NCBI GenBank assembly: GCA_958295535.1
Contig: OY282356.1
Location: 1,945,614 to 2,009,613 of the forward strand
Source of the DNA: Gemmatimonadota bacterium
GTDB lineage: Bacteria; Gemmatimonadota; Gemmatimonadetes; Palauibacterales; Palauibacteraceae
Direction: 5' to 3'
Length of the DNA stretch: 64,000 nt
Below are positions 25,855 to 63,323 of this stretch, one piece after another; within the stretch, counting starts at the first letter, position 1, and every line of letters starts with the position of its first letter. A model generated the notes under the pieces. It was not told the origin of the DNA, ran no database searches, and saw nothing but the letters and a program-made list of their open reading frames with translations. The position numbers and the translations under genes are program-made.

Positions 25855-26106
25855 TCAGCGGCGGAGCTCCCCGTCCAGGAGGTGGTGGAAATCGCCTTCC
25901 CAGAGTTGTGCGGTGGAGCCGTCCTCGTTGACGAGGAACTGGCCGGTTCTGATTTCGGAGATACCGTATTCCGGGAGAGGGACTTGCGCTAGGCACTTGC
26001 CGGCTAATCTCTTGCCGTGCGTCTCGAAATTAAACAACATCACTGCTACGGTCAAGACGCTGGCCGTGGCAGGCAGAACGCGGATGCTGAAGGCCGAGAC
26101 ATCCAT
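25855..26106 (-). pseudogene. Remnant of a GT-C paralog: TM-helix fragment fused to the last ~50 residues of the shared C-terminal domain (internal deletion)
   Basis: MDVSAFSIRVLPATASVLTVAVMLF matches the early TM region of GT-C 52882..54855 (VDVSAFSIRVLPAAASVLTVAALLF). It is fused directly to FETHGKRLAGKCLAQVPLPEYGISEIRTGQFLVNEDGSTAQLWEGDF, which is the CTD tail. It lies immediately upstream of paralog 1 on the minus strand. Confidence 0.6.
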
Positions 26107-26202
26107 TTTCTGGACCGCCCACAGTGCCAGGGGAGGGGATACAATATGGGACTGGAGTTGCCGTAACGGGAGCGAAGGCCATTCCTCGAAGAAACCGCCC
26201 AG

Positions 26203-28632: not shown

Positions 28633-28652
28633 ACCGGGCGAGGAGACCTCCA

Positions 28653-41305: not shown

Positions 41306-42160
41306 TCACGGCGACGGCAGGGTGCGCAAGTATATCCCCTCTCGCACCTGCCGGGACGAATTCTCGACTATCCGACAGCACGCGACAGCCGAAGCGTCCA
41401 GTACCCCCAATGATTCCTCGGAGAGGCGGGGCCTTTCTTGCTCGTCGCCCAGGGGAACGAAGAACGCCTTGTTGACCGCCTCGCTATCCTTGATTCGCTG
41501 CAATAGATGCCTGAAACCAAGCTGGCGCAGAGCAAAGCCGCACCAGTGCCCAAAGGCCGAGAGCCACAAGGACCTGGCGGCAACCGCCTGGTTCGCGGCT
41601 TGTCGCGGGACACGGTCGAACTTCGGCGCTCGGCAGAGGGAAGACAAGACATCCAGCACAGCGCCCGTATCCTTGACAAGAGCAGAAAAAGAGAGCGTCA
41701 GGACATCGACTTGGGGCCGGAACACTTCTGCCAAGCGTTCGGAGGTCAGTCTATCGCGTACAACCGCCGCCTCCAGCCGCCGCGCGCCGAAGAGAGCCGA
41801 TGGCTCTGCCCGGCTTCTGCGGAATTGCATCATCGAAGTTGCGCGGTCCCGGTGGTCTCTGAGAAGCGCCACCAGCAATATTCTGAACCCCTCCTCCCTC
41901 AAGGCTTCCACGCTGCGAGACAACGTGGTATCGGCATAGGCCAAGTTAGCCACGTCGCACAGGACTTGGCCCCTCCCCAGCCGATCCAGCCGTTTCCGCG
42001 CCCGTCTGAACGTTCTTGGAGAGCGGTAGTAGTACCGCTCCTTGATTTCGAGGAAGCAGAAGCTGGGATGGCCTTCCAAAATCCGGTACAGGAATTCGCT
42101 CCCCGACCGCCCAGGCCCCACTACAAGTAGATAATCGTACACGTCCGGACCGCCTTCCAA
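41306..42160 (-). CDS. Sulfotransferase family protein (PAPS-dependent)
   Basis: 284 aa. N-terminal 5'-PSB P-loop-like motif YLLVVGPGRSGSEFLYRIL and later RDHRDRATSMMQFRRS (3'-PB-like). A degraded paralog fragment lies at 58161..58633. Confidence 0.7.
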   Translation of the reverse strand: MEGGPDVYDYLLVVGPGRSGSEFLYRILEGHPSFCFLEIKERYYYRSPRTFRRARKRLDRLGRGQVLCDVANLAYADTTLSRSVEALREEGFRILLVALLRDHRDRATSMMQFRRSRAEPSALFGARRLEAAVVRDRLTSERLAEVFRPQVDVLTLSFSALVKDTGAVLDVLSSLCRAPKFDRVPRQAANQAVAARSLWLSAFGHWCGFALRQLGFRHLLQRIKDSEAVNKAFFVPLGDEQERPRLSEESLGVLDASAVACCRIVENSSRQVREGIYLRTLPSP

Positions 42161-48245: not shown

Positions 48246-48359
48246 GGGCGGCAGCTCTCCCCCTGATCGCGCCGGGCAGCGCGGACCGGCCCGCGGCCCA
48301 CGGGAAGCTCGCGTCGCCGAGCCGCGACAGCCAGACCGCCGACAGACCTTTTAGGAGAA

Positions 48360-48482
48360 GTTGCGAGCGGGGATGTCGAGAGCTTGGGATCTCCCCGGCT
48401 CAAGCATGGATGGTGGGGGACCGGCTAGGCGACCCGATATCTTGACCGCGGGTCAATGCAAAGGGGCAGCGGTCTCGGTCGA
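48360..48482 (+). pseudogene. Remnant of the gmhB 3' end (duplicate of 44560..44830 with internal deletion), carried along with the GT2 duplication
   Basis: gtcgagagcttgggatctccccggctcaagcatggatggtgggggaccggctaggcgacccgatatcttgaccgcgggtcaatgcaaaggggcagcggtctcggtcgaaccgccctgaa matches gmhB 44565..44618 joined to 44760..44825. Confidence 0.6.
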
Positions 48483-49557
48483 ACCGCCCTGAACCGGGGT
48501 GAAGAAACCGATTCCCCAGCTACCGATTCCCCAGCTCAGGTGCATGGTCGCTAGGGCCAGCGGGAGCAGGAGCGCGGCGTACGAACGGCGACGGATGCCG
48601 ACCGCCAGAGAGCCGAGCGCCAGGGTGAGCACGTACGCTAGCGGCACTGCCGCTGCCGCCCAGGAGGCGCCGGCCACGGCCAAGACCGACGAAGCGGCCA
48701 ATCCCAGCAGCAACAGCGGGCTGCCGAGATGCCGGGGCAGCAGGGATAATCGATGTCGTAGCGCCACGACCCGCTTCCATCGGCCGTAATCGAAATATTG
48801 CCAAGCGAGACCCCGCAAAGTATTGCGGGGATGGTAGTCGACCACGAGCTCGGGATCGAACCACACCGTTTCCCCGTTCCCCGCGCGCCCGAAGCCGCCA
48901 GTTGAGTTCGTAGTCCTCGGCTCGCACAAGGGTAGGGTCGACGCCGGCCACCGCCTCCAACGCATCGCGCCGGAACGCGCCCAGGAAGACGGTGCGAGCA
49001 GGCCCCTCCGCGCCGCCCAGCCGGTAGCGGGCGCAGCCGGCCCCCAGGGGAGTGGTCATCGCCATCGCCACCGCGCGCCCGAAGAACGTGACGCCGACCG
49101 GCCGTTGCCGGCCGCCGACGTTCGCCGCCCCCGTCCTTTGCAACGTGCTCACCGCGCGGCGCACGTATCCGGCCGGCAACACCGTATGGGCGTCGCACCG
49201 CACGATGACCTCTCCGTCCGCCGCCCGGTACGCCGCGTGGATTCCGTGCGTGATGACCTGCTCCAGATTGGGAACCAGCGTCACTGTCGGGTACAGCCGC
49301 CGAACCAAGTCGGATGTGGCCGACGTGTCGGATCCGTCGGCGACGATTACCTCTACCGAACCCTCGTAGTCCTGAGACAACACCGAGTCGATCGCCGCCC
49401 CGATGGTCGCCTCGGCGTTCCGAGCCGGGATGAGAACCGACACCGGCGGCAGTCGAGTCGCAGCGGCCGGCTGCGGGACGACAATGGAATTCTCCTTCAT
49501 GTCCCATGACTGCAATGGTGTCGAACCGGACGCCACCGGCAAGCGTTCAGTTTTCAC
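48453..49557 (-). pseudogene. GT2 glycosyltransferase, third copy, frameshifted (split into ORFs 48520..49557 and 48453..48965)
   Basis: The N-terminal 228 aa are ~95% identical to module 1 of 44786..46861. The frame is lost after RLRARGE, and the conserved continuation (TVWFDPELVVDY...GFFTPVQGGSTETAAPLH*) appears in another frame. Small local duplications are present (WGIGSWGIG; ccgattccccagct x2). Confidence 0.65.
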
Positions 49558-49765: not shown

Positions 49766-50170
49766 CTACTCGACCAGGGGGATGAACCTGCGCCACGGAT
49801 GCCACTCCGTTTCCCACTCCGCGCGCAGCCGGAACTCGTGGGCGGCACCGCATACCTCCGGCCCCGGCGCATCCCAGCGCAGCTCGAGGATGGAGGGCCG
49901 GGACTGCGGCGACGATTTCGCTGTATGCCACGTCGCCGTCCGCCCCGCGCGTACGGAGGTGCACGGAGTATTTCCGTACGGGCAAGGTACGTGCGATCCA
50001 GTGGACGAGGCTCCGGTCCCCGCGCCCGTCCGCTCTTCGGCGCCGACGCGGAGATCCTCGATAGCGGAGGGGCCGCCACCGATGAGTCCCACGATCTGTC
50101 GGGCTTCCTCCGCGGTGACCGCCGTCCAGAGGCCGCGCCATACCGATTTGCTTGCGACTGACGCCCAAGC
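49766..50170 (-). pseudogene. Remnant of a PQQ-dehydrogenase/cytochrome-c paralog: signal-peptide region fused to the C-terminal tail
   Basis: ccataccgatttgcttgcgactg (also at 63240..63262, the 5' end of 61389..63284) is joined to a ~80%-identical copy of the last ~130 codons of that gene (GLIGGGPSAIEDLRVGAEERT...HEFRLRAEWETEWHPWRRFIPL vs GLIGADADAIDNLRVGAKERT...HEFRLRADGKREWGPWRRFIPL), with frame disruption. Confidence 0.55.
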
Positions 50171-50209: not shown

Positions 50210-51367
50210 CTATCTTGGGCGATGGTCACCCGCATTTTGCTGCCGCCGGTTCGTGGAGGTGGCCACCGGCTTCATCCCGTAGCAACTGCGGCAATAGTGC
50301 GGAATGTCGTTGTCGGCAATTCGTCGGCGCAGTTCCCTGTATTTGTCGTTGTTCCAAACATCGGCGAATGGCTCACTAAAAACGTTGCCCATTTTTACGA
50401 CGCTGGAATCGGCTATTTGACAGCAGGGGACGACGTCGCCGTTGGCGGCAATGTAGGAACTCTGCCAAGGCCAGGGACAGCGGTTCGCCCTGGAATACCT
50501 TTGACCATGCTCGACGCTGAGCGGCATCCCGATCTCGGCGGCGACTTCTCTCGACTTCCGGATAGTCCGGTCCACCCGGGCATCTTCCCTGGAAACGTCT
50601 ATCGACGCAATTGACTCCTCCATCTCCTCTTTTCCCCAGTCGGTCAGCAAGGTCGTTATAGTCAATTTGTCCACGCCGAGGCGTTTCGCCAGCCGCACCA
50701 AGTCCGGCAGTTCGTGGGCATTCCGGAGCGTAACGACCGACCGCAGTTCGATCCCGGGCCAGACGCTGCGGCCGCGGCGGCGGACTAGGTCGGCGACATT
50801 GTCGACCACCTTCTGAAAGTTGCCGTTGACCCGGATTGCCTCGAACGTCTCTGCCGTCGCGCCGTCCATGCTGATGATAATCGTCGTTCCCCGCAGGCAG
50901 CTAAGCTGCTTGGCGATATTCTCGGTATAAACCGAACCATTGGTTACGATGGAGATGGCCCTCCCCCCAATCTCTCCCTCTTCCAGCATCTCGATCAGAT
51001 GCCGGTTCAGCAGGGGTTCTCCCATTCCCTGGAGCTTGATCTGACGAAGCATCGGCAACTGACGGAGAATCGAAATGAACCGCTCGGTGGTCAACCGGGT
51101 CGTCTTCCGCGCCCAGTGCGTCACTTGGCAATGGTCGCAGGCAAAGTTGCACGTATCGATCGGCTCGACGTCAACGCTGGTGGGCAGGAAAGGAGTCCTT
51201 TTCAGCCCGAGAAGCTTGGCTGCCCGCCCGCCGACGGTGTGATAGAACTTTCGAGGACTACCCATTCCTGCCCGGCGCCATAGTCGAAAGAGACTTCGGA
51301 AACTATGATTCATTTCCAAGCGAACTCCACATAGCCTGATTTTTTGTCCCCGCCTACCGTCACGCAT
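50210..51367 (-). CDS. Radical SAM protein with C-terminal SPASM-like Cys-rich domain
   Basis: CxxxCxxC motif (IDTCNFACDHCQV), a radical SAM core (LQGMGEPLLN) and a C-terminal Cys cluster (CPWPWQSSYIAANGDVVPCCQ...YCRSCYG). The start is uncertain (MNHSF at 51313 or MGSPRKF at 51265). A 3' fragment copy lies at 58456..58700. Confidence 0.75.
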   Translation of the reverse strand: MRDGRRGQKIRLCGVRLEMNHSFRSLFRLWRRAGMGSPRKFYHTVGGRAAKLLGLKRTPFLPTSVDVEPIDTCNFACDHCQVTHWARKTTRLTTERFISILRQLPMLRQIKLQGMGEPLLNRHLIEMLEEGEIGGRAISIVTNGSVYTENIAKQLSCLRGTTIIISMDGATAETFEAIRVNGNFQKVVDNVADLVRRRGRSVWPGIELRSVVTLRNAHELPDLVRLAKRLGVDKLTITTLLTDWGKEEMEESIASIDVSREDARVDRTIRKSREVAAEIGMPLSVEHGQRYSRANRCPWPWQSSYIAANGDVVPCCQIADSSVVKMGNVFSEPFADVWNNDKYRELRRRIADNDIPHYCRSCYGMKPVATSTNRRQQNAGDHRPR

Positions 51368-51415
51368 CAGTCGGGCCTCTCCGCTTCTGAACGAGGAACG
51401 CCGCCGTGGCGCAGG

Positions 51416-51675
51416 CTAGGCCGATAACGAAATTGTAGGCCCCATGGTGAGCAGATGATTAAACGTCATGCCGTACATGGCCATCACGACAACCCATCCG
51501 ACGACTGAATCTCTGCCCAGTGGCTTCGGCACAGTCCAAAGCAACCGCATCAAGAATAACAGAGACAGCAAGCACAATGCCAATGGAATAATACCCGCTT
51601 CGCCAGCCAGTATCAGGTACACGTTGTGGACTCCAGTCGGTTCCCCCCGGTTTCCGATGGGGGCGCCAACGCCAC
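51416..51675 (-). pseudogene. Fragment of a Wzy_C (O-antigen ligase/polymerase) paralog C-terminus
   Basis: GAPIGNRGEPTGVHNVYLILAGEAGIIPLALCLLSLLFLMRLLWTVPKPLGRDSVVGWVVVMAMYGMTFNHLLTMG is ~85% identical to the C-terminus of 63324..64000. It is fused at ~51675 to the 3' end of the FAD-oxidoreductase pseudogene. Confidence 0.5.
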
Positions 51676-52892
51676 CGCGACGGTCCGAGCAACCTCCCGG
51701 CCCTGCCGGATCGCATAGTTCGTGCCCCGGTCTTCCAGATAGATCTGGGCCATGGTCGCCAGAAACAGGTTCGTCACAGGCATGCGCGTAGGGGGAATCA
51801 GCCGGCGGTAGCCGCGCTCCACGACGGGCTGCGCGTAGCGCGCGCGCCAGACGTGGGCAGCCAGTATCCGGTCGTCCGTCAGGTCGGGAAACATCCGCCG
51901 CAGGTGTTCGAGCGTGAACGCGACCGCTTCCTCGTCCGGCATCCCCCACAGCGCGTCGCTCTCGGGCAGATAGCGGGACAGATACACGATGTGCCGCCCG
52001 GCGTAGGTCGAGGCAGGCTCGAAGTTGGTGTGCTCGATGACTCCCACGAAGGGGAAGCCGGGGTCGTTGACGTTCAGCCAGTAGATGTCCGACAGGCTGC
52101 AGTCGAGCTCGAGCACGACGCACACATTGGCCAGATAGCGGATGCGCCGCAGGCCGTCCACGTAATCGCCCGGCGCGTACCCGCAAGCCCGTGACCGGAG
52201 CTCCGGTGCGGATTTCTCCACCTTGGTCTCGGATGGCCCGGGCCAGCGCGTCGGCGAGGGCTGCGAAGCCGCCGCGGTAATAGGCCAGCCGTTCCCTGCC
52301 GCCTCTGCCGCGGCTGCCGCCCCTGAGCTTGAGCTTGTTCCAGAACCACACCGCCGCCACCTCTTCCGCCAAGTCGCCGAACTTGCCCCGCAGGAGCGGC
52401 GCCCACACCACCCGGTAGACCCGCTCGCCACCCATGTCCCGCAGCCAGTCGGCCGCGGTGCGGTCTTCAAGGCCGCTCCACTCCTTCACCCGGCGCACGC
52501 GCAATGCCAGCAGCCCCAGCCGGATGCGGTCGAAGAACGGAAGGGGCGAGAAGCGCAGGAGGTCGAGGGGCGTCGAGAGCTTGAAGAAGTCGTGGGCGTA
52601 GTACGTGCTGGTCCGGGTAGGACGCAGCACCACCTCGGCCGACCGGCCCAACTCCGCGATGAGATTCATCACATGGACGTCGCTGGTGAACCAGTGGTGG
52701 TAGAACTTCTCGAGCCGCACCGGCGGCGGGAAAGCTGCCGGCGAGGCCGCCGACTTCGGCGTCCCGCTCCAGCACCGTGGCGCGTAGGCCGCGCCGGCCC
52801 AACTCGTAGGCCGCGGCTAGCCCGCAGAAGCCGCCGCCGATCACCGCGACATGGGGCCGGGCAGACGCCGGCCGTCGTGGGCTACTTGTCAA
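51676..52892 (-). pseudogene. FAD/NAD(P)-binding oxidoreductase (amine-oxidase/phytoene-desaturase-like fold), copy A; frameshifted by a 107-bp deletion and 3'-replaced
   Basis: Colinear with the intact copy 54852..56201 (HVAVIGGGFCGLAAAYELGRRG...). It lacks the 107-bp segment present at 55378..55484, which is bounded by a cgcgt direct repeat, and this causes a frameshift (ORFs 51613..52470, 51416..52720 etc.). Its 3' end is joined to the Wzy_C fragment. Confidence 0.6.
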
Positions 52893-54855
52893 AACGAATT
52901 TCCCCTTCCCAGAGGTGTGCGGTGGAGCCGTCCTCGCGGACGAGGAACTGGCCGGTGCGGACGCGGGCGATGGCGTAGTCGGGAAGCTCGCGCAGAGCGA
53001 CGCACCGCTCGGCTGACCGAAACCAACGGCCACCACGGTCGTTGACGCGGAAGTCGAGGTTGTCGAAGCCGTACTGCTTTCTGTGATCAGGAAGGTCGTT
53101 CTCGTCCGCCGGGACAACATGCAGGAAGAAGGTTTCCTGCGCGTCCTCTGCACCGCACGACTCCTTGACATAGATCAACATGTCCTCGGTGAGATGGACA
53201 TCGAAGGTGGAGCGGATTGACGGCTTACGAGTCAAGATTGCCTCCAAATCTCTCACCGCATCAGTAGCGTGACGGTTTATCAAGGCTGCCGCATCTTCAA
53301 TCAGATAGACGTCATGGGGTCCAAACACGACCTGCTCAACCGAAAGCCCGGACATATCCGGTAGCCAGGGACCGACAAACCAGATTCTTCCGTCCACGAT
53401 GCCGGACCAGTGGGCCAAATCAGCCATCTCGCGGAGACACGACTTGGAGGAGCGCCAGCACCAACCGGAGTTTCCATAGTGGTAATTGGCCGGTCTTTCT
53501 TCATTTCCTCGATAGAACCGCATGGCCGGGACCGCCCCCCAGTCTGCGTAGACCATGTCCTCTTCCCGCACCCGTTCTTTCAGTACGGCGAGAACGGATT
53601 CGATGTTTACGGCAAGAGCGGGATCGATGTTTTCACGTGTCTGGTACGGACTGTCCTGCCGCATGGCGCCCACCCCGGCAAGCACCATCGCGCCGGCCAT
53701 CGCAACGAGCAAGGCCGGCGTCGTCCACCCCCGGCGCGTGAGCGAGGACAAACGACCGGCGGTCCAATGAAACGCCAAGCCGACCGCCAGGAAGACAATC
53801 GGACCCAGATAGATGGTCTGGCGAATGCCCCCAAGCGGATATATTCGCAGCACGGCAGCACCGACCAGAACTGCAAGGGAAAGCGAAAATAAAACTGCGA
53901 TGGCACCGTCAATGGGGTTTCCTCGAAACTTTCCGAGGAGTGCTGTGGCGAGGAGGATCGCGAATGCGGCAAGCGCCGCTATCGCAACGACATCCGGCAA
54001 ATGATACGTCAATAGACTCCAGATCCCGTCAATCGAAAACTCGAAGACCTCGAGGATCGAGTGCGGGTAGAATTTTCCCTGATAGTAATACGGTCGCAGA
54101 TAGCCGGTCGGGGCGAAGTCCGGTGCACCCAACTGATAGCGCGCAGTCATCAAGTAGCTTGTGGCACCTCCCGCCAGAAAGCACGCCGCTGGCGCGAGCA
54201 GGGCGATGCGCTGCCTGAGCCAATGAGGAATCCGGCTCAGGTACGAGTTCCATTCCGATGCCCCTAAAGTCGGGGGGGGGGGCAGAACCACAGCGGCGCC
54301 AATGACGGCGACGCCGAACAGAACCAAGCCGTACTGGAGCAAGGGCGCGAGGAACAGCGCAACGCAGAGCAGGGCCTTCCGGCCGTGCCGCAGATACCAC
54401 AGCAGTCCCGCTATCATCAGCGTGGCCAGCAGCGCGTCGATGGAGTATTCGCGCGCATCCTGGGCGTGATATATCGCGGCAACCGAAAGAGTCGCCAGCA
54501 GCGCCGCCAGAAACGCGGCCCACCGGCTCGCTCCGGCGCGGGGAAGCAGAAAGAGCAGGGCCGCCACGGTCAGAACGCTGGCCGCCGCCGGCAGAACGCG
54601 GATGCTGAAGGCGGATACATCCACTTTCTGCACCGCCCACAGCGCCAGAGGGTACAGTATAGGCGAGGAGTTCCCGTAGCGGGTATTGGGGACTACTTCC
54701 GAGAGAGCGCCACTCGAATTATTGGCCGCTGCCGCTTCGTCATGCCGTAGAGACTTCTCCGGCAGGTCATGGAAGCGCAGCCCTGCCGCGGCGACAAGCA
54801 GGCAAACACAGGCCGCGTAGAACAGATGCGTTTTGCGGTCCCAGCTGAATGTCAT
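52882..54855 (-). CDS. ArnT/PMT_2-like GT-C membrane glycosyltransferase, paralog A, with shared C-terminal domain; contains a C11 homopolymer
   Basis: ATG 54855 (MTFSWDRKTHLFYAACVCLLVAAAGLRFHDL...); the listed 943-aa ORF adds an out-of-frame overlap with the upstream gene. First-loop motif LRHDEAAAANNS (ArnT-like DE), ~12 TM helices. CTD: SIRSTFDVHLTEDMLIYVKESCGAEDAQETFFLHVVPADENDLPDHRKQYGFDNLDFRVNDRGGRWFRSAERCVALRELPDYAIARVRTGQF. About 85-90% identical to paralog B. Confidence 0.75.
   Translation of the reverse strand: MTFSWDRKTHLFYAACVCLLVAAAGLRFHDLPEKSLRHDEAAAANNSSGALSEVVPNTRYGNSSPILYPLALWAVQKVDVSAFSIRVLPAAASVLTVAALLFLLPRAGASRWAAFLAALLATLSVAAIYHAQDAREYSIDALLATLMIAGLLWYLRHGRKALLCVALFLAPLLQYGLVLFGVAVIGAAVVLPPPPTLGASEWNSYLSRIPHWLRQRIALLAPAACFLAGGATSYLMTARYQLGAPDFAPTGYLRPYYYQGKFYPHSILEVFEFSIDGIWSLLTYHLPDVVAIAALAAFAILLATALLGKFRGNPIDGAIAVLFSLSLAVLVGAAVLRIYPLGGIRQTIYLGPIVFLAVGLAFHWTAGRLSSLTRRGWTTPALLVAMAGAMVLAGVGAMRQDSPYQTRENIDPALAVNIESVLAVLKERVREEDMVYADWGAVPAMRFYRGNEERPANYHYGNSGWCWRSSKSCLREMADLAHWSGIVDGRIWFVGPWLPDMSGLSVEQVVFGPHDVYLIEDAAALINRHATDAVRDLEAILTRKPSIRSTFDVHLTEDMLIYVKESCGAEDAQETFFLHVVPADENDLPDHRKQYGFDNLDFRVNDRGGRWFRSAERCVALRELPDYAIARVRTGQFLVREDGSTAHLWEGEIRFDK
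54272..54282 (-). repeat. Homopolymeric tract G11 (C11 on the coding strand) inside GT-C paralog A, encoding Pro-Pro-Pro-Pro
   Basis: cccctaaagtcGGGGGGGGGGGcagaacc on the plus strand; on the coding strand gtt ctg ccc ccc ccc ccg act tta gives VLPPPPTLG. Paralog B has no tract at the equivalent position (..LVAPRVSGQARW..). Confidence 0.9.
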
Positions 54856-56201
54856 CCTGCACCTTCCGACGCCGCCGCGACGGTCCGGGCAACCTCCCGG
54901 CCCTGCCGGATCGCATAGTTCGTGCCCCGGTCTTCCGGATAGATCTGGGCCATCGTCGCCAGAAACAGGTTCGTCACAGGCATGCGCGTAGGGGGGATCA
55001 GCAGCCGGTAGCCGCGCTCCACGACGGGCTGCGCGTAGCGCGCGCGCCAGACGTGGGCAGCCAGTATCCGGTCGTCCGTCAGGTCGGGAAACATCCGCCG
55101 CAGGTGTTCGAGCGTGAACGCGACCGCTTCCTCGTCCGGCATCCCCCACAGCGCGTCGCTCTCGGGCAGATAGCGGGACAGATACACGATGTGCCGCCCG
55201 GCGTAGGTCGAGGCAGGCTCGAAGTTGGTGTGCTCGATGACTCCCACGAAGGGGAAGCTTGGGTCGTTGACGTTCAGCCAGTAGATGTCCGACAGGCTGC
55301 GGTCGAGCTCGAGCACGACGCACACATTGGCCAGATAGCGGATGCGCCGCAGGCCGTCCACGTAATCGCCCGGCGCGTGAGGCGCCACGAGGTCGGCGAC
55401 GATGGGCAGCGCCGGCGTCGCGATCACGGCGTCGGCGGCCAGCGTCGCCTCCGGCGTGACCACGCCGGTCCCCCGCCCGTCGCGTACCCGCAAGCCCGTG
55501 ACCGGAGCTCCGGTGCGGATTTCTCCACCTTGGTCTCGGATGGCCAGGGCCAGCGCGTCGGCGAGGGCTGCGAAGCCGCCGCGGTAATAGGCCAGCCGTT
55601 CCCTGCCGCCTCTGCCGCGGCTGCCGCCCCTGAGCTTGAGCTTGTTCCAGAACCACACCGCCGCCACCTCTTCCGCCAAGTCGCCGAACTTGCCCCGCAG
55701 GAGCGGCGCCCACACCACCCGGTAGACCCGCTCGCCACCCATGTCCCGCAGCCAGTCGGCCGCGGTGCGGTCTTCAAGGCCGCTCCACTCCTTCACCCGG
55801 CGCACGCGCAATGCCAGCAGCCCCAGCCGGATGCGGTCGAAGAACGGAAGGGGCGAGAAGCGCAGGAGGTCGAGGGGCGTCGAGAGCTTGAAGAAGTCGT
55901 GGGCGTAGTACGTGCCGGTCCGGGTAGGACGCAGCACCACCTCGGCCGACCGGCCTAACTCCGCGATGAGATTCATCACATGAACATCGTTGGTGAACCA
56001 GTGGTGGTAGAACTTCTCGAGCCGCGCACCGCCGGCGGGAAAGCTGCCGGCGAGGCCGCCGACTTCGGCGTCCCGCTCCAGCACCGTGGCGCGTACGCCG
56101 CGCCGGCCCAACTCGTAGGCCGCGGCTAGCCCGCAGAAGCCGCCGCCGATCACCGCGACATGGGGCCGGGCAGACGCCGGCCGTCGTGGGCTACTTGTCA
56201 A
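54852..56201 (-). CDS. FAD/NAD(P)-binding oxidoreductase (amine-oxidase/phytoene-desaturase-like fold), intact copy B
   Basis: Rossmann dinucleotide motif RPHVAVIGGGFCGLAAAYELGRRGVRATVLERDAEVGGLAGSF, then ~400 aa (..YYRGGFAALADALA..; ..GVVTPEATLAADAVIATPALPIVADLV..). The start is ambiguous: TTG 56201 overlaps the upstream GT-C stop; GTG 56153 is the alternative. The upstream part of the listed 542-aa ORF is out-of-frame overlap with GT-C B. Confidence 0.7.
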   Translation of the reverse strand: MTSSPRRPASARPHVAVIGGGFCGLAAAYELGRRGVRATVLERDAEVGGLAGSFPAGGARLEKFYHHWFTNDVHVMNLIAELGRSAEVVLRPTRTGTYYAHDFFKLSTPLDLLRFSPLPFFDRIRLGLLALRVRRVKEWSGLEDRTAADWLRDMGGERVYRVVWAPLLRGKFGDLAEEVAAVWFWNKLKLRGGSRGRGGRERLAYYRGGFAALADALALAIRDQGGEIRTGAPVTGLRVRDGRGTGVVTPEATLAADAVIATPALPIVADLVAPHAPGDYVDGLRRIRYLANVCVVLELDRSLSDIYWLNVNDPSFPFVGVIEHTNFEPASTYAGRHIVYLSRYLPESDALWGMPDEEAVAFTLEHLRRMFPDLTDDRILAAHVWRARYAQPVVERGYRLLIPPTRMPVTNLFLATMAQIYPEDRGTNYAIRQGREVARTVAAASEGAG

Positions 56202-58173
56202 AACGAATTTCCCCTTCCCAGAGGTGTGCGGTGGAGCCGTCCTCGCGGACGAGGAACTGGCCGGTGCGGACGCGGGTGATGGGGTAATCGGGAAGCTTGC
56301 GCAGAGCGACGCACCGCTCGGCTGACCGAAACCAACGGCCACCACGGTCGTTGACGCGGAAGTCGAGGTTGTCGAAGCCGTACTGCTTTCTGTGATCAGG
56401 AAGGTCGTTCTCGTCCGCCGGGACAACATGCAGGAAGAAGGTTTCCTGCGCGTCCTCTGCACCGCACGACTCCTTGACATAGATCAACATGTCCTCGGTG
56501 AGATGGACATCGAAGGTGGAGCGGATTGACGGCTTACGAGTCAAGATTGCCTCCAAATCTCTCACCGCATCAGTAGCGTGACGGTTTATCAAGGCTGCCG
56601 TATCTTCAATCAGATAAACGTCATGGGGTCCAAACACGACCTGCTCAACCGAAAGCCCGGACATATCCGGTAGCCAGGGACCGACAAACCAGATTCTTCC
56701 GTTTGCGATGCCGAGCCAGTAGGCCAAGTCAGCCATCTCACGGAGACACGAATTGGAGGAGTTCCCGCACCAACCGGAGGTCCCATAGTGGTAATTGGCC
56801 GGTCTTTCTTCATTTCGTTGATAGAACTGCAAGATCGGGACTGCCCCCCAGCCTGCGTAGACCATGTCCTCTTTCCGCATCCGTTCTTTCAGTACGGCGA
56901 GAACGGATTTGATGTTGTTACGTATCTGGTACGGACTGTCCTGCCGAATGGCGCCCACCCCGGCAAGCACTGTCGCGCCGGCCATCGCAACGAGCAAGGC
57001 CGGCGTCGTCCACCCCCGGCGGGTGAGCGAGGACAAACGACCGGCGGTCCAATGAAACGCCAAGCCGACCGCCAGGAAGACAATCGGACCCAGATAGATG
57101 ACTTGGCGGGTGCCTCCAAGCGGATATATTCCCAGCACGGCGGCACCGACAGAAACCGCAAGGGAAAGCGAAAATAGAACTGCGATGGCGCCGTCATGGG
57201 GCTTTCCTCGAAACTTTCCGAGGAATGCTGCGACCAGGAGGATCGCGAATGCGGCAAGTGCCGCTATCGCAACGACATCCGGCAAATGATATGTCAATAG
57301 ACTCCAGATCCCGTCAATCGAAAACTCGAAGACCTCGAAGATCGAGTGCGGGTAGAATGTTCCCTGATAGTAATACTGTCGCAGATAGCCGGTCGGGGCG
57401 AAGTCCGGTTGACCCCACTGATGGCGTACAGTCACCAAGTAGCTGACGGTACTCCCCGCCAGGAAGAACCCACAGGGCGCGACCAAGTCCAGGCGTCGTT
57501 TCAACCAGCCACCGATCCGGCCAGGATAGGCACTCCACCTTGCCTGTCCGGAGACGCGTGGAGCGACGAGGGCGGCGCCAATGACGGCGGCGCCGAACAG
57601 GACCAAACCGTACTGGAGCAACGGCGCAAGGAACAGCGAAACGCAAAGCAGGGCCTTCCGGCCGTCCCGCAGATGTCGCAGCAGCCCCGCCATCATCAGC
57701 ACGGTAAGCAGTGCGTCGATAGAGTATTCCCGCACATCCTGGGCGTGCCAGATTGCTTCAACGGAAAGCGTGGCGAGCAGGGCCGCCAGAAACGCGGCGC
57801 CCCGAGCGACGCCGAGACGCGGCAGCAAGAAGAGCATCAAGGCGATGGTCAGAACGCTGGCCGTCGCCGGCACGATTCGAACGCTGAAGGGCGTGCTCTC
57901 GACTTTCTGGACCGCGTACAGGACCAGGGGGTACAGGATTGGAGAGGAGTTAGCGTAACGGGTACCGGGGATGACTTCCGAGAGCGCACCTCTCGAAATA
58001 TTGGCCGCTGCCGCTTCGTCATGCCGTAGAGACTTCTCCGAAAGGTCATGGAAGCGCAGCCCCGCCGCGGCGACAAGCAGGCAGACACAGGCGGCGTAGT
58101 ACAGACGCGTTTTGCGGTCGCGGCCGAAATCAGCGATGCGCCGGGTCATGGCGCGCATCCCTATCGCTCGCAT
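56191..58173 (-). CDS. ArnT/PMT_2-like GT-C membrane glycosyltransferase, paralog B, with shared C-terminal domain
   Basis: 660 aa. LRHDEAAAANISRGALSEV first-loop motif, ~12 TM helices, CTD identical in motif to paralog A (...FFLHVVPADENDLPDHRKQYGFDNLDFRVNDRGGRWFRSAERCVALRKLPDYPITRVRTGQF). Confidence 0.75.
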   Translation of the reverse strand: MRAIGMRAMTRRIADFGRDRKTRLYYAACVCLLVAAAGLRFHDLSEKSLRHDEAAAANISRGALSEVIPGTRYANSSPILYPLVLYAVQKVESTPFSVRIVPATASVLTIALMLFLLPRLGVARGAAFLAALLATLSVEAIWHAQDVREYSIDALLTVLMMAGLLRHLRDGRKALLCVSLFLAPLLQYGLVLFGAAVIGAALVAPRVSGQARWSAYPGRIGGWLKRRLDLVAPCGFFLAGSTVSYLVTVRHQWGQPDFAPTGYLRQYYYQGTFYPHSIFEVFEFSIDGIWSLLTYHLPDVVAIAALAAFAILLVAAFLGKFRGKPHDGAIAVLFSLSLAVSVGAAVLGIYPLGGTRQVIYLGPIVFLAVGLAFHWTAGRLSSLTRRGWTTPALLVAMAGATVLAGVGAIRQDSPYQIRNNIKSVLAVLKERMRKEDMVYAGWGAVPILQFYQRNEERPANYHYGTSGWCGNSSNSCLREMADLAYWLGIANGRIWFVGPWLPDMSGLSVEQVVFGPHDVYLIEDTAALINRHATDAVRDLEAILTRKPSIRSTFDVHLTEDMLIYVKESCGAEDAQETFFLHVVPADENDLPDHRKQYGFDNLDFRVNDRGGRWFRSAERCVALRKLPDYPITRVRTGQFLVREDGSTAHLWEGEIRFDK

Positions 58174-58633
58174 CGGGCCTCCCCCGCGGCGTCCGGCCGG
58201 ATCGCTCCGAAGACGGCGGCATTCAACGGCCCGGCGACACGCAAAACAGCCGAAGCGTCCAGTATCTTCAAGGATTGCTCAGAGACGCGGGGGCCCTTGT
58301 GCATTGTCGGCCAAGGGAACGAAGAACGCTTTGTTGGCCACCTTGTCCTCCTTGATTCGCTGTAACAGACGCCTGAAGCCAAGATGGCGCAGAGCAAAAG
58401 CCGCACCAGTGCCCAAAGGCCGAGAGCCACAAAGACCTGGCACCCACCGCCAAGTTCACGGCTCGTCGCGGCGTGCGGTCGAACTTCGGCGCTCCGCAGA
58501 GGGAAGGCAAGATTGCGGCCGCGGGTCCGTGGAGGCGGCTACCCGCTTCATCCCGTAGCAACCGCGGCAATAGTGCGGAATGTCGCCGCTGGCAATTCGC
58601 CGACGCAGCTCCCGGTATTTGTCGTTGTTCCAA
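58161..58633 (-). pseudogene. Degraded sulfotransferase paralog fragment
   Basis: LCGAPKFDRTPRRAVNLAVGARSLWLSAFGHWCGF and SEQSLKILDASAV match the C-terminal region of 41306..42160 (LCRAPKFDRVPRQAANQAVAARSLWLSAFGHWCGF; SEESLGVLDASAV). There is no N-terminal PAPS-binding part and the frame is broken. Confidence 0.5.
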
Positions 58634-58700
58634 ACATCGGCTTGTCCACCGAGGCGGATCAAGAGTTCGGATTTTCTGATAATCTCATCTATCTGCGGCG
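58456..58700 (-). pseudogene. 3' fragment of a radical-SAM/SPASM paralog
   Basis: ADVWNNDKYRELRRRIASGDIPHYCRGCYGMKRVAAST matches the C-terminus of 50210..51367 (ADVWNNDKYRELRRRIADNDIPHYCRSCYGMKPVATST). The nucleotide match begins ~58530. Confidence 0.5.
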
Positions 58701-58787
58701 AATGGTCTTCCTGGCGGTAGAGAAAAATATGTCTATCGCGGTCGCGACGGAAACGGACGATGCGTCGGGCTATGGCGCGCGCATCCC

Positions 58788-60138
58788 TTATCGCTCGCAT
58801 CGGGCCTCCACCTCGACTCCCGTCCAGATCGTTGTAGCTGCGCGGTTGTTTGGAGGTCTCCTCCGAATCAAGGGCCATGCGATGTACCGAGAACCCGTCA
58901 TCGCGCACCGTCCGACGCCGCCGCGACGGTCCGGGCAACCTCCCGGCCCTGCCGGATCGCATAGTTCGTGCCCCGGTCTTCCGGATAGATCTGGGCCATC
59001 GTCGCCAGAAACAGGTTCGTCACAGGCATGCGCGTAGCGGGGATCAGCAGGCGGTAGCCGCGCTCCACGACGGGTTGCGCGTAGCGCGTGCGCCAGACGT
59101 GGGCAGCCAGTATCCGGTCGTCCGTCAGGTCGGGAAACATCCGCCGCAGGTGTTCGAGCGTGAACGCGACCGCTTCCTCGTCCGGCATCCCCCACAGCGC
59201 GTCGCTCTCGGGCAGATAGCGGGACAGATACACGATGTGCCGCCCGGCGTAGATCGAGGCAGGCTCGAAGTTGGTGTGCTCGATGACTCCCACGAAGGGG
59301 AAGCTTGGGTCGTTGACGTTCAGCCAGTAGATGTCCGACAGGCTGCGGTCGAGCTCGAGCACGACGCACACATTGGCCAGATAGCGGATGCGCCGCAGGC
59401 CGTCCACGTAATCGCCCGTCGCGTACCCGCAAGCCCGTGACCGGAGCTCCGGTGCGGATTTCTCCACCTTGGTCTCGGATGGCCAGGGCCAGCGCGTCGG
59501 CGAGGGCTGCGAAGCCGCCGCGGTAATAGGCCAGCCGTTCCCTGCCGCCTCTGCCGCGGCTGCCGCCCCTGAGCTTGAGCTTGTTCCAGAACCACACCGC
59601 CGCCACCTCTTCCGCCAAGTCGCCGAACTTGCCCCGCAGGAGCGGCGCCCACACCACCCGGTAGACCCGCTCGCCACCCATGTCCCGCAGCCAGTCGGCC
59701 GTGATGCGGTCTTCGAGGCCGCTCCACTCCTTCACCCGGCGCACGCGCAATGCCAGCAGCCCCAGCCGGATGCGGTCGAAGAACGGAAGGGGCGAGAAGC
59801 GCAGGAGGTCGAGGGGCGTCGAGAGCTTGAAGAAGTCGTGGGCGTAGTACGTGCCGGTCCGGGTAGGACGCAGCACCACCTCGGCCGACCGGCCCAACTC
59901 CGCGATGAGATTCATCACATGAACATCGTTGGTGAACCAGTGGTGGTAGAACTTCTCGAGCCGCACCGGCGGCGGGAAAGCTGCCGGCGAGGCCGCCGAC
60001 TTCGGCGTCCCGCTCCAGCACCGTGGCGCGTACGCCGCGCCGGCCCAACTCGTAGGCCGCGGCTAGCCCGCAGAAGCCGCCGCCGATCACCGCGACATGG
60101 GGCCGGGCAGACGCCGGCCGTCGTGGGCTACTTGTCAA
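58788..60138 (-). pseudogene. FAD/NAD(P)-binding oxidoreductase, copy C; carries the same 107-bp frameshifting deletion as copy A
   Basis: Colinear with copy B. It is split over ORFs 58788..59966, 58898..59677 and 59320..60303. The deletion point (...atcgcccgtcgcgtacccgcaagcc...) is the same as in copy A. Confidence 0.6.
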
Positions 60139-61002
60139 AACGAATTTCCCCTTCCCAGAGGCGTGCGGCGGAGCCGTCCTCGCGGACGAGGTACTGGCCG
60201 GTTCTGATTTCGGAGATGCCGTATTCCGGGATAGGGACCGTTGCCAGGCACTTGTCATCGAATCTGTCGCCGTGCCGGTCGAAATAGAAGTCCAGGTTGT
60301 CAAAGCCGTTCCGCTTGCGATCGTCTGGCAGGTCTGCCACCTCGACGGGATACAGGTGCAGAAAGAACGCCGCCTCCGTGTCGGCGCGGGCGCACGGGTC
60401 CTTGGCGAAGATCAGACTTCCCTCGCCAAGATAGACGTCGAACACACTGCGAACCGCTGGCTCGCCGACAGTCGCCGACGACAAGTGGGCGTCTAGCCAC
60501 CGCCGTTTCTCCTTGAACCAGCGCTCCACTTCCCAAAGGAGATTCCAATCGCGGTCAACCTGTCCGGTTCGGTAGCCGCTTTCACATAGTTGCCGAACTG
60601 CCACCAACTCTAGCAAGGGGTCCCGAGACAAGGCGCTTCGGGGGTCGTCGGCCTGCTGCCGAGAGCACTCTAACCCCTGGTCACGGAAATGGAAATAGAG
60701 GACGTGCACCTCTCCGCCGCCAAGTGTGGTCGACCATGCGGACCGTAGATGATCCGGTTCGCATGGCAGGGCGTAATGGCGTCGCGGACTGTCGGCGTAC
60801 AATGCCATGACGGAGACGGCATTGCTCCGGATCGCGCCTGTCAGAGCCGCCTCCCGAATGTACTGGACGCTCTCCGAATTCCTCTACCGCGGGGTGGCAA
60901 ACGCATGTTGCGCACCGGCATTCCAGCGCGGCATCTCGCGGGCATTCAGCACAACCAGCCAAACCGCCTGCAGGGACAGCGCCAACATCAGGACGGCCGC
61001 GA
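60128..61002 (-). pseudogene. Deletion derivative of a GT-C paralog related to 38528..41164: mid-region fragments + intact shared C-terminal domain only
   Basis: ORF 60128..60808 contains HYALPCEPDHL...SRQQADDPRSALSRDPLLE and GQVDRDWNLLWEVERWFKEKRRW, which match internal segments of paralog 4. It ends with a full CTD (VRSVFDVYLGEGSLIFAKDPCARADTEAAFFLHLYPVEVADLPDDRKRNGFDNLDFYFDRHGDRFDDKCLATVPIPEYGISEIRTGQYLV...). No TM/GT-C core. 60700..61000 matches 39750..40050 in another frame. Confidence 0.6.
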
Positions 61003-61366
61003 GGGCCCTCGCCCGTGAACGCGATGTCCTGATGGCGGTGTCGAGCTCCGGAACGTCGGCGAACATCGTGGATGCCGCTCGAACCGCTCTCGAGATCGGG
61101 ATGGACTTGGTGACATTCTCGGCATTCTCGGCCGACAACCGCTTGCACAAGCTGCAATCCACACTTTCCTTCCATACGCCGACCGATATCTACGGACACG
61201 CCGAACTAGCCCATGCAGCGTTGATTCACGCCGCTGTCGACATATGTTCTCGATGGGAAGAGGAAAGATGACTATCACTCGCACCCCTTATAGCGGCATA
61301 TGCTTGTCCTACTCCAAGACGGAGACAGTTCGAACTTCGAAAGACTTGGAGCATGACATAGTGCGT
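61003..61366 (+). pseudogene. Duplicate fragment of the gmhA 3' end and hddA 5' end (with internal deletion)
   Basis: 61003..61270 is ~97% identical to 42943..43207 (ARERDVLMAVSSSGTSANIVDAARTALEIGMDLVTFSAF...SRWEEER*). It is followed by an hddA start (MTITRTPY) with ~120 bp deleted, and homology ends at ~61366. Confidence 0.65.
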
Positions 61367-61388
61367 GCGAACCGACTCCGGGGCACTG

Positions 61389-63284
61389 TCAGTCCCTATT
61401 GCTCGTCGCCCCTCCGTCATGCCTAGCCTGCGTCGACAGGGGAATGAACCTGCGCCAGGGACCCCACTCCCTTTTCCCGTCCGCCCGCAGCCGGAACTCG
61501 TGAGTGGCGCATGCCTCCGGCGCCGGCGCCTGCGCGTCCCAGCGCAGCACGAAGCCGCCGTCGCGGTCCGGGACCGCGGCGACGACCTCGCTGTATGCCG
61601 CTTTGCCGTTCGTGGTCCGCGTACGCAGTTGCGCGGCGTATTTCAATCCGTGCGTGATCCCTGCTATCCGATGGGCGAGGGTCCGGCCCCCGCGTCTGTC
61701 CGTCCGCTCTTTGGCGCCGACGCGGAGATTGTCGATGGCGTCGGCGTCAGCGCCGATGAGTCCCACGATCTGCCGGGCCTCCTCCGCGGTGAGCGCCGGG
61801 CCGGTCATAGTGGTTCCGGGAGCGAACCCCTGCGGGTCCACGAGGTAGCGCTCCATGTCACCGGGCGTCCAGGCCTGGTCCAGAGACCGCAGGGCGTCAG
61901 AGAACCCGGCGAAACCCTCCACTGCGCCCGCGCGCCTGCCGAGCGCGCCCACGAGATGGGGCCCGGCGCGATGGGTTTTCTCGCTCAGGGAGTGGCACTC
62001 GGCGCAGCGCAGAGCGAACAGACGCGAGGCGGCGCAGTTCAGCATGGCGGTGCGTTCCTCGTCGATGCGGCGCAACAGTTTGACCCGGCCCGAATCGATC
62101 AGGAGAGCCAGACGACCGTCCGGCAGGAAGGTCAGGTCGCGGATCGGCCCGCCGCCGACCAATATCCTCTCAACATACTGGATGACCCGGCCGCGGCGGC
62201 GCACCCGGAAGATCGAGTGGCCGCCGGGGATGCCTTCGAGGTAAGAGGTTCCGCTCAGCGAGGCGATCAGCAGATCGTCGTCCCACAAGGGAAATGCCCG
62301 GCGGTCGTTCACCGTCAGAGCGGAGACTCCCGGCGACGGCGCCCAGGCGAAAACGGGCCGCGTGAAGCCGTCGTGCCGACCCTCCATTCCATACTGCCGA
62401 GAGGTCGCGTCCCCATACGGAAGACCGTAGCTGACCTGCGGAAAGCCATAGTGCCGGCCGGGTTCGAGCAGGTTGAGTTCGTCGCCGCCGCGCGGCCCGT
62501 GTTCGGCGGCCCACAGGTCGCCCGCCGCGTCGCGCGCCAGCCCTTGCGGATTGCGATGCCCGCGCGTCAGCGTTTCGGCGGCGCCGGTCCCGATCTCGAT
62601 GCGGAGGAGTTTGCCCAGATCGAGTTCGTCATCCAGAAGTTCATCATCGCTCGCGTCGTGATGCCCCACCAAGACCAGGAGGTGGTCCGGGCCATCCATC
62701 AACATGCGTCCCCCGGCTTGAAGCCCGGCGAGGAGGAAGCAGGGCCGGGCATCGAAAACCGTCCTCCAGGCGTCTGACAACTCCACGTCCCGCTCGTCTC
62801 GAAGCAACGTCGTGGCTGACACCCGGAACAGGAAACACTCCCCGGTGAAGTAGTGGTGGGAGACGAACAGCTCGAAGCGACCGGGCGAATGCTCCTTCAG
62901 CAGAATGTCCGACACCCAGGCGCGGTGTAAGGGGATTTCGATTCCCGCCTCCCCGCCCATCGGAACCCGGCCGTCGAGATACCGAAACGCGCCGTCCGGG
63001 GTCATGAGGGCGAGTCGGCCTCGCGGCGTGGCGATGAGCAGGTCGTCGCCCAGAACCTCTATCGCGCCCCCAACTCCGGCGAACGGCTCAAGCGAGTAGG
63101 TCTCGGTCTCCAGCGCATATAGATGGGTCCGCAGGACCGCCTCTTCCGCCCCGGCTCCGACCCCCCTCCCCCCAAGCTGGTCGGAGCAAGCGGCTGTCGC
63201 GACCCAAAACGCGGTGACCGCCGCCGTCCATAAGCCGCGCCATACCGATTTGCTTGCGACTGGCGCCCAAGGGCATTCGTTCAT
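61389..63284 (-). CDS. PQQ-dependent soluble sugar (aldose) dehydrogenase-like beta-propeller fused to a C-terminal cytochrome c domain
   Basis: Signal peptide with Cys (GLWTAAVTAFWVATAAC). Soluble glucose/sorbosone dehydrogenase signatures: GHRNPQGLARDAAGDLWAAEHGPRGGDELNLLEPGRHYGFP. C-terminal heme-binding CAECH motif (NCAASRLFALRCAECHS) followed by a ~150-aa tail. Confidence 0.7.
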   Translation of the reverse strand: MNECPWAPVASKSVWRGLWTAAVTAFWVATAACSDQLGGRGVGAGAEEAVLRTHLYALETETYSLEPFAGVGGAIEVLGDDLLIATPRGRLALMTPDGAFRYLDGRVPMGGEAGIEIPLHRAWVSDILLKEHSPGRFELFVSHHYFTGECFLFRVSATTLLRDERDVELSDAWRTVFDARPCFLLAGLQAGGRMLMDGPDHLLVLVGHHDASDDELLDDELDLGKLLRIEIGTGAAETLTRGHRNPQGLARDAAGDLWAAEHGPRGGDELNLLEPGRHYGFPQVSYGLPYGDATSRQYGMEGRHDGFTRPVFAWAPSPGVSALTVNDRRAFPLWDDDLLIASLSGTSYLEGIPGGHSIFRVRRRGRVIQYVERILVGGGPIRDLTFLPDGRLALLIDSGRVKLLRRIDEERTAMLNCAASRLFALRCAECHSLSEKTHRAGPHLVGALGRRAGAVEGFAGFSDALRSLDQAWTPGDMERYLVDPQGFAPGTTMTGPALTAEEARQIVGLIGADADAIDNLRVGAKERTDRRGGRTLAHRIAGITHGLKYAAQLRTRTTNGKAAYSEVVAAVPDRDGGFVLRWDAQAPAPEACATHEFRLRADGKREWGPWRRFIPLSTQARHDGGATSNRD

Positions 63285-63323
63285 GATAGTCCGTATTAGT
63301 TAGCGCGCATGCCCCCGCCGCCG

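Follow-up and report, generated by a model that had tools for sequence, protein, structure and literature searches.

In the silent-cassette systems of Neisseria (pilE/pilS), Borrelia (vlsE/vls), and Anaplasma (msp2), many in-frame copies of one variable segment of a surface protein are bounded by conserved repeats and feed a single expression site. Tandem amplification, followed by decay through unequal crossing-over and short-repeat slippage, is part of general bacterial genome dynamics. A further kind of gene fragment is known from O-antigen clusters, where remnants of wzy differ between Salmonella groups B1 and D1 through different serial deletions, and where a remnant of tyv marks a module replacement in the Abe module of Yersinia pseudotuberculosis (PMC3715488, PMC5399914). 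The fragments described here lie in a 64-kb stretch of a Gemmatimonadota contig, hereafter the window, and are concentrated at 58174-61388, between the start of a glycosyltransferase-like gene, GT-C B, and the stop of a glucose/sorbosone dehydrogenase (GSDH) gene. Repeated duplication, deletion, and gene swapping have, with a probability of roughly 0.8, turned this region into a relic field within a surface-polysaccharide locus that is shaped by recombination.

Self-comparison, six-frame homology searches, and Pfam/NCBIfam scans identify the window as one large surface-polysaccharide locus. Pfam recognises two Wzx flippases, Wzy_C proteins, GT2, GT4, an epimerase, a gmhA/hddA/HAD heptose cassette, and PMT_2-like proteins, and the locus further contains B12- and SPASM-type radical SAM (rSAM) enzymes and sulfatase-like proteins. 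Six full-length multi-pass membrane proteins, the GT-C-like paralogs, all end in a C-terminal domain (CTD) of ~105 aa. From ~44 kb to the end of the window the genes are mostly on the minus strand, in an operon-like arrangement. For comparison, 16 related loci (L001-L016) from metagenome-assembled genomes (MAGs) were used, with the taxonomy of their titles taken as given.

About 93% of the 3,215 nt of the relic stretch is recognisable as the remains of at least seven unrelated enzyme families, most of them in a single copy. The window as a whole holds ~12 relics, 7-8 of them within these 3.2 kb. They retain 11-45% of the length of their parent genes, with the exception of the copies of an FAD amine oxidase (FADox), which are near full length with deletions. 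The relics carry frameshifts, a stop codon or internal deletions, only the CTD part of the GT-C remnant being still open; their junctions show short direct repeats or microhomology, and sliding identity profiles and a breakpoint test place them at the borders of blocks that differ in similarity or ancestry. Their homology, defects, and junctions, the intact counterparts, and the mosaic pattern of the locus are all direct observations.

An earlier note on this DNA had listed seven such fragments, all of which are real, each matching an intact gene with self-BLAST E-values of 1e-41 to 1e-144; this includes the three that it placed elsewhere in the window (a helix-to-CTD fusion, a PQQ-dehydrogenase remnant that belongs to GSDH, and a Wzy_C fragment). 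Absent from that list were two FADox copies (C and A), a GT-C 5' stub, an HAD 3' fragment, and a methyltransferase-like copy. The functional labels Radical_SAM/SPASM, SIS_2, GHMP kinase, GSDH, and Wzy_C agree with Pfam, while sulfotransferase and GT-C stay below threshold. As to the extents proposed, that of the gmhA/hddA piece (61003..61366) is exact, but those of the sulfotransferase (58161..58633) and rSAM (58456..58700) pieces are too long, both following spurious open reading frames (ORFs). Gene callers will emit such ORFs at 58161..58430, 58268..58633, 58456..58962, and 51416..52720, and a run-on ORF of 943 aa is also to be expected at 52882..55713.

Relics upstream of GT-C B

The largest piece, making up 40% of the relic stretch, is the FADox pseudogene copy C (58897..60229, minus strand), which is spread over three frames. 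It is 97.2% identical, without gaps, to a second pseudogene, copy A (51666..52860, minus strand), and 98.3-98.7% identical to the intact copy B (54852..56168, minus strand; Amino_oxidase E 2e-39 in Pfam, PRK07233 E 4e-155). A [GT-C-like + FADox] unit of ~3.3 kb is present in ~2.4 tandem copies at 51.7-60.2 kb. Within it, the stop codon of FADox B overlaps the start of GT-C A in an ATGA at 54852-54855, so that the array reads as an operon. Copies A and C lack the segment GTGVVTPEATLAADAVIATPALPIVADLVAPHAPG and share the same deletions of 107 nt and 2 nt, the latter leaving the N-terminal FAD-binding motif out of frame in both. In intact copy B, imperfect 12-nt direct repeats, CGCCCG(G/T)CGCGT, border the segment that corresponds to the 107-nt deletion, which is a classic slippage or short-homology deletion. 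An insertion in B instead of a deletion in A and C was considered and rejected, since only B gives an uninterrupted Amino_oxidase/PRK07233 match, and the FADox of L002 is likewise full-length. At the junction, the left variant of the repeat (G) is found in A (52167-52178) and the right variant (T) in C (59413-59424), the intact form lying at 55367-55485; the difference could stem from one event and a later change, or from two independent slippages at the same repeat.

Each of the three FADox copies has private substitutions. Counted over all scored sites, the non-synonymous to synonymous ratio is 13:10 in A, 8:3 in C, and 1:2 in intact B, with that of A falling to ~10:6 once its non-homologous 3' end is trimmed by hand. 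The numbers are small, and the direction of the non-synonymous excess in A and C fits relaxed constraint. An exact scan of the metagenome contigs of the Joint Genome Institute (JGI) for the junction of the 107-nt deletion gave 0 matches. Among the relatives, L002 has a GT-C gene followed by a full-length FADox, and FADox stubs of 40, 49, 53, and 82 codons follow GT-C in L006, L001, L005, and L003, respectively.

At its upstream end, FADox copy C runs on into the last ~25 codons of a CTD of the type found in GT-C A and B, and then switches to the type of a 912-aa paralog in the window. The GT-C remnant to which this CTD belongs (60128-61008) corresponds to residues 414-546 and 753-911 of that paralog, at ~65% aa identity in the alignment. 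Its CTD-bearing end (60128..60578, minus strand) lies within a 226-aa ORF (60128..60808), and its upstream part (60599..61008, minus strand), which covers residues 414-546, is 80% identical in nucleotides to 39621-40026. Residues 1-413, the membrane domain, are missing, 207 internal codons have been deleted, and an in-frame stop codon is present at 60884-60886. The CTD tail is chimeric: the body of the remnant is of the 912/656 type, and its last ~25 codons are of the A/B type, positions 60128-60202 being 96% identical to 56191-56265, 75 nt of GT-C B. The description of this piece in the earlier note as a GT-C deletion derivative is confirmed, but not the word 'perfect'. The tract common to the remnant CTD and the A/B genes is significant in a GENECONV-like run test, and from the continuity of FADox C with the A/B-type tail it follows that one end of the duplication arose through homologous exchange within the CTD.

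In L001, a full-length 912-type GT-C directly follows Wzy, and a 912-type deletion derivative is also present; in the window, GSDH and the gmhA/hddA fragment separate Wzy from the decayed 912-type remnant further downstream. Protein searches with the remnant return mostly short ORFs that begin at arbitrary internal positions of the 912-type protein, or fusions of the first helix to the CTD. One cluster of the latter kind in the relatives (P0137), an ORF of 203 aa that joins the first membrane helix to the CTD, has the same length on at least five contigs, with amino-acid differences concentrated in the CTD, and may be either a small protein with a function or a relic that has spread recently. 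No exact match to GT-C B, the 226-aa remnant ORF or P0004 was found in the protein collection.

A short second piece of the GT-C B type, the 5' stub (58738..58831, minus strand), consists of the leader and the first ~20 codons. It duplicates 58114-58204, with ~80% identity and indels of 1 nt and 2 nt, and homology to the leader of L002 reaches ~58858.

The sulfotransferase relic (58231/58246..58512, minus strand) covers residues ~166-259 of the product of a 284-aa gene at 41306..42160 and, with two frameshifts, spans frames -3/-1/-2. It is 84% identical in nucleotides to 41385-41649 in the window and 90% identical to the sulfotransferase of L016 (7600-7877); the Pfam match behind the sulfotransferase label stays below threshold. 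It abuts at 58512/58513, in a clean deletion junction, on the rSAM/SPASM 3' relic (58513..58641, minus strand), which corresponds to residues 335-378 of the 385 encoded at 50210..51367. This second relic is 88% identical in nucleotides to 50237-50365 and 80% in amino acids to the gene at 50210..51367, and 92% identical in nucleotides to the rSAM 3' end of L016. The gene order in L016 is an intact Wzy, then rSAM (itself internally deleted), and then directly an intact sulfotransferase. As both relics are nearer to these neighbouring genes than to the copies within the window, the two pieces come from one contiguous pair, from which ~614 nt were deleted.

At the other end of the stretch, the 3' half of gmhA (SIS; SIS_2 by Pfam) is joined to the 5' end of hddA (GHMP kinase) at 61003..61366, on the plus strand. 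In the self-comparison, 61003-61293 is 98.6% identical to 42939-43229 and 61296-61366 is 98.6% identical to 43352-43422, with an internal deletion of 122 nt relative to the source. The piece is a recent copy, and its junction with the GT-C remnant shows ~5 nt of microhomology, GCCC.

Two small elements complete the stretch. Upstream of GT-C B, 34 nt at 58206..58239 (no strand assigned) are 97% identical to 37629-37662 in the PMT_2-like gene at 36033..37931 (blastn-short E 4e-11), and could be a micro-fragment or a motif shared with that gene. A further 96 nt (58642..58737, no strand assigned) are unattributed and have a G+C content of 46%, against ~63% for the window.

Mosaicism, exchange, and the proposed history

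The tandem genes GT-C A and GT-C B are 96-100% identical over the CTD and FADox, and 55-90% over most of the membrane domain. In GT-C B (56191-58173), the 5' half is 95-99% identical in nucleotides to a gene of L001, while other L001 genes are only ~81-86% identical to the window. On the 5' side of a breakpoint at ~57396, 163 of the 184 informative sites are L001-like, and on the 3' side 80 of 117 are like the neighbouring gene A. This mosaic structure is strongly significant in a maximum-chi-square breakpoint test (chi2 104, 0/1000 permutations), and other triplets are significant as well. The partner or donor is a full-length gene type of another lineage, that of L001, and the contrast in identity suggests a recent inter-lineage exchange if the MAG taxonomy is as titled.

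Together with the ~2.4 tandem units and the significant tract in the remnant CTD, the mosaic GT-C B bears out the unusually active intralocus recombination that the earlier note had claimed. That note had also named an absence of mosaic tracts among the paralogs as counting against its proposal; such tracts are detectable with both the GENECONV-like and the chi-square tests. On the other hand, no tract of at least 88% identity between a remnant and an intact gene was found beyond the CTD tail, in the window and the 16 loci. The CTD-tail tract is continuous with the FADox duplication, and therefore represents a duplication junction, not an internal conversion tract.

GT-C-like copies with 54-80% aa identity are found in MAG chromosomes titled Gammaproteobacteria, Latescibacteria, Candidatus Entotheonella, Pseudomonadales, and Dehalococcoidia, and in these relatives the genes are mostly islands without flanking homology. 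Such a mix of taxa would be typical of sponge microbiomes, and in the sponge-symbiont literature nothing specific to the GT-C-like family was found. In the Dehalococcoidia-titled locus (L009, 13504-21028), a permease of the xanthine/uracil type and two GT-C types are 86% and 79% identical in nucleotides, respectively, to their counterparts at 23877-33133 of the window. Orphan CTDs or N-terminal pieces occur in 11 of the 16 related loci by a rough domain count. Debris of this kind is a general property of these loci across genomes that were assembled independently, and this speaks against a single assembly error in the window.

The relics would be leftovers of genes once resident or copied in, trimmed down through successive deletions and through the uneven borders of segmental duplications. 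Two processes would be at work in the locus. Homologous recombination between blocks shared by paralogs (the CTD, the FADox gene, and the 5' end of GT-C) would duplicate, delete or swap whole modules and exchange tracts with other lineages, and illegitimate joining at short repeats or microhomology would leave truncated pieces at the breakpoints. The starting point was probably an intact 912-type GT-C downstream of Wzy, as in L001, together with an intact unit of a B-type GT-C followed by FADox, similar to that of L002, and an adjacent rSAM-sulfotransferase pair similar to that of L016. One FADox copy would then have lost 2 nt, and 107 nt between the imperfect 12-nt repeats, and the dead copy would have been duplicated to give A and C, one end of the duplication recombining within the CTD tail. 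The 912-type gene would have lost its membrane domain at the junction with the fresh gmhA-3'/hddA-5' copy, and later gained a stop codon and the 207-codon deletion, while the rSAM-sulfotransferase pair would have been whittled down to 129 and 282 nt.

The relics have no dedicated function and are a record of frequent replacement among the modules of glycan synthesis, for which diversifying pressure on the cell surface is presumably responsible. As such, the region is an ordinary kind of feature, a pseudogene or relic field in a hypervariable glycan locus, although an unusually dense one. Its value is mainly that of a record of fast module turnover by tandem duplication, short-repeat deletion, and inter-lineage exchange, from which earlier gene orders can be partially reconstructed.

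Weighing of the alternatives

An assembly artefact, in which strain variants or repeats of a metagenome were wrongly concatenated, is quite unlikely. All the relatives are MAGs, units that are 97-99% identical over >1 kb are classic misassembly terrain, and the deletion in FADox copy A is identical to that in copy C; moreover, the proteins of the window have no independent copy in the public collection, and the deletion junction was not found in the JGI metagenomes. However, the identity between relics and their sources varies from 77% to 98.6%, unlike that of concatenated strain haplotypes, the junctions bear biological signatures (12-nt direct repeats, microhomology, and the ATGA overlap at the A/B unit boundary), and each FADox copy has its own substitutions. 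Comparable relics and tandem arrays are also present in independently assembled chromosome-level MAGs, and on a contig whose name suggests a hifiasm-meta long-read assembly (a reading of the name only). A different explanation, raised as a possibility in the earlier note, is that of silent donor cassettes as in antigenic variation. The promoterless truncated copies would be kept as a reservoir, and gene conversion from them into the expressed paralogs, above all the GT-C/CTD genes, would vary the glycan. This we regard as very unlikely. The truncated copies do adjoin intact paralogs on the same strand, but most relics derive from unrelated cytoplasmic enzymes (sulfotransferase, rSAM, FADox, gmhA/hddA, GSDH, HAD, and Wzy) and are mostly single, and silent copies of the same segment are few, namely two CTD remnants and one 5' stub, all different. 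The reading frame is kept in the CTD of both CTD remnants, but in these segments only, the sulfotransferase and FADox relics being frameshifted and the GT-C remnant stopped. A significant tract is common to the remnant and the CTD tails of GT-C A and B; it is the sole near-identical tract between a remnant and an intact gene, and coincides with the FADox duplication junction. GT-C B is strongly mosaic, but its donor is the full-length gene type of the L001 lineage, not a remnant. Nor does the gmhA/hddA piece, 98.6% identical to its source, have any diversity to donate, and the rSAM and sulfotransferase pieces are nearer to the intact pair of L016 than to paralogs in the window. Short ORFs bearing a CTD recur in the relatives, but N-terminal-only fragments exist too. 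No conserved bounding repeats were detected, a repeat search and self-BLAST giving paralog homologies and one duplicated GT-C leader only, and no recombinase was found in the window. As for the accompanying claim that exactly the shared modules are preserved in the fragments, it is true of just 2 of the ~12 relics. Nothing positive supports a reservoir role of the CTD remnants, which is likewise unlikely.

The relics might also include functional small genes, of which the best candidate would be the 226-aa CTD ORF at 60128..60808, as a stand-alone, possibly glycan-binding beta-sandwich. The ORF is intact, with an ATG start and a G+C content at third codon positions of 0.73, the normal codon bias, and the CTD is an autonomous repeat module in 2,269 clusters, including proteins composed of CTD repeats only; short CTD ORFs are, in addition, held at 203 aa on at least five contigs. 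Against this, the start of the ORF is an internal methionine within a longer homologous frame, with a stop 75 nt upstream, and no promoter-like site was found for it. By eye, neither a signal peptide nor a membrane helix is obvious in its product, in contrast to the full-length proteins, where a multi-pass membrane domain precedes the CTD. In its closest short homologues, too, the start falls at an arbitrary internal position, or else the end lies in a shifted frame, as in P0139. A functional small gene is very unlikely. A broader proposal holds that the GT-C/CTD genes, their FADox partners, and the truncated copies form a recombination-driven system of glycan diversification shared by co-resident symbionts of several phyla, with the conserved CTD and 5' blocks as recombination handles and the truncated copies as a usable reservoir for new transferase variants; it is unlikely.

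Several points weigh against the interpretation as a relic field, chief among them that the junctions are known from the assembled sequence only. No genome of the same species was found for a presence/absence comparison, and the nearest relatives are ~81-92% identical in nucleotides. The 226-aa CTD ORF is uninterrupted and its codon bias normal, short CTD ORFs like it have kept a constant length on several contigs, and some residual function of the piece is conceivable. The 96 nt at 58642-58737 match nothing in the window, in any of the 16 related loci or in the protein database, and no insertion sequence (IS) element or recombinase that would account for the high rearrangement rate was found in the window.

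Further duplications, the GT-C-like family, and known systems

The window contains further relics outside the dense stretch. A Wzy_C 3' relic (51345..51667, minus strand) is 87% identical in nucleotides to 63310-63632, and a GSDH 3' relic (49770..50124, minus strand) is 77% identical in nucleotides to 61433-61798, and 47% in amino acids. The HAD phosphatase 3' fragment (48365..48489, plus strand) lies at the edge of a segmental duplication of GT2 genes, and the fusion remnant of an A-type GT-C membrane helix and CTD tail (25855..26171, minus strand) is, over its positions 25892-25947, 93% identical to the CTD tail of GT-C A and B. Lastly, the methyltransferase-like relic is the frameshifted and truncated first copy (16707..17794, plus strand) of a parent gene at 19727..21130; the frameshift is near 17021-17033, and the truncation at codon 362.

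This last relic belongs to a 3-kb tandem duplication of sulfatase-like and methyltransferase-like genes (14792-20813, 95% identity). At 44762-49753 there are three copies of the GT2 segment with 85-95% identity, two of which are fused in frame into a double-GT2 protein of 691 aa; in L016 this protein is conserved, with a gene of 690 aa. Two GT4 paralogs on opposite strands (21628-22299 and 47136-47808) form a 670-nt inverted repeat with 71-73% identity, 25 kb apart, and are a potential substrate for inversion. Transposon activity was considered and rejected, as no transposase is found among the scanned ORFs and the self-comparison gives only paralog-derived inverted repeats. ORF scans and ARAGORN likewise revealed no transposase, integrase or tRNA in the window, nor were Rfam families found there; promoter and terminator scans remained at or below shuffle expectation. 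In L016, an rve-family transposase adjoins gmhA/hddA (12829-13656).

The label GT-C for the membrane paralogs is plausible, not proven. The family matches no Pfam or NCBIfam family at trusted thresholds, and has hundreds of homologues on multi-megabase contigs. The plausibility comes from the multi-pass N-terminal domain, an acidic pair, sub-threshold matches, and a gene trio nearby. In GT-C B, ~10-11 long helices are predicted in residues 20-412. The acidic pair follows the first of them, and in a comparison of 40 homologues D52 does not vary and E53 hardly does. The sub-threshold matches of the paralogs are to PMT_2 (E 3e-4 and 3e-5), PMT (E 3e-3), Agl23 (E 7e-7), and LA_3751 (E 2e-9). The trio consists of genes for an SDR (30099..30845), a FAD_binding_4 protein (33130..34422), and UbiA (34532..36103), which stand among the GT-C-like genes and resemble the route by which DprE2, DprE1, and UbiA provide polyprenyl-phosphate sugar donors. 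Neither GT-C B nor its 40-sequence profile gave a meaningful match in sequence searches of the PDB. In the AlphaFold2 model of GT-C B, only residues 420-660 are well predicted, the membrane domain having a pLDDT below 50; with this low-confidence model, the best GT-C structure found by Foldseek in the PDB is DPY19 (TM-score 0.24, E 0.07), the other matches being weak beta-sandwiches only (FlaF soluble domain and FN3, E ~4e-3).

The shared CTD module is present at 2572-2907, 23880-24215, 30845-31180, 38531-38866, 52885-53220, 56194-56529, and 60131-60466. It is confidently predicted as a beta-sandwich (pLDDT 75-90) and belongs to no Pfam or NCBIfam family. A profile search retrieves it from the 2,269 protein clusters (50% identity) mentioned above, often in 2-10 tandem copies, with 10 in the 1,851-aa P0202. 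This wider context is of more interest than the debris itself: an unannotated CTD and a multi-copy GT-C-like family are apparently exchanged among MAGs titled as different phyla, with mosaic tracts of up to 99% identity. If true, surface glycan genes would constitute a shared and fast-moving gene pool of the community.

GT-C enzymes of the PMT/ArnT type and the mycobacterial Emb/Aft enzymes have a soluble C-terminal domain and use polyprenyl-phosphate sugar donors. The family of the window is similar to them in its multi-pass N-terminal domain, its acidic pair D52/E53, and its soluble beta-rich C-terminal domain, and resembles the Emb/Aft enzymes, with their DprE1, DprE2, and UbiA, in the UbiA, FAD_binding_4, and SDR genes nearby. 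It differs in that its matches are sub-threshold only, that it has no sequence relative in the PDB and a low-confidence membrane model, and that its CTD matches only generic beta-sandwiches.

With the silent-cassette systems the locus shares truncated, apparently promoterless copies near intact paralogs, a mosaic gene family, and conserved blocks that could guide recombination. Nevertheless, its pieces come from at least seven unrelated enzymes and are mostly single and in several cases frameshifted, and no remnant-derived tract was found in an intact gene. The locus also resembles tandem amplification and decay, with head-to-tail units of ~3.3 kb at 90-99% identity and a deletion between 12-nt direct repeats. 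The duplications end without regard to gene boundaries, and this accounts for the HAD, gmhA/hddA, and methyltransferase fragments. In this case, however, the units are not uniform: in one unit, one half shows 95-99% identity to another genome and the other half matches the neighbour. Exchange between lineages has thus been added to the local duplication.

Of the known phenomena, the gene remnants in O-antigen and capsule clusters come closest. In both cases, truncated and non-functional pieces of glycan genes lie at the junctions of blocks with different ancestry, derive from module replacement or deletion with lineage-specific serial deletions, and have intact versions at the same place in related clusters. 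The window differs in its much higher density of relics, in the duplication of a gene copy that was itself already dead, and in being without an IS or H-repeat element. In addition, its locus is built around tandem arrays of the multi-copy GT-C-like family and shows inter-lineage mosaicism, and the relatives whose modules match it are titled as different phyla. With these differences, the locus of the window is a dense example of the O-antigen and capsule-cluster type.

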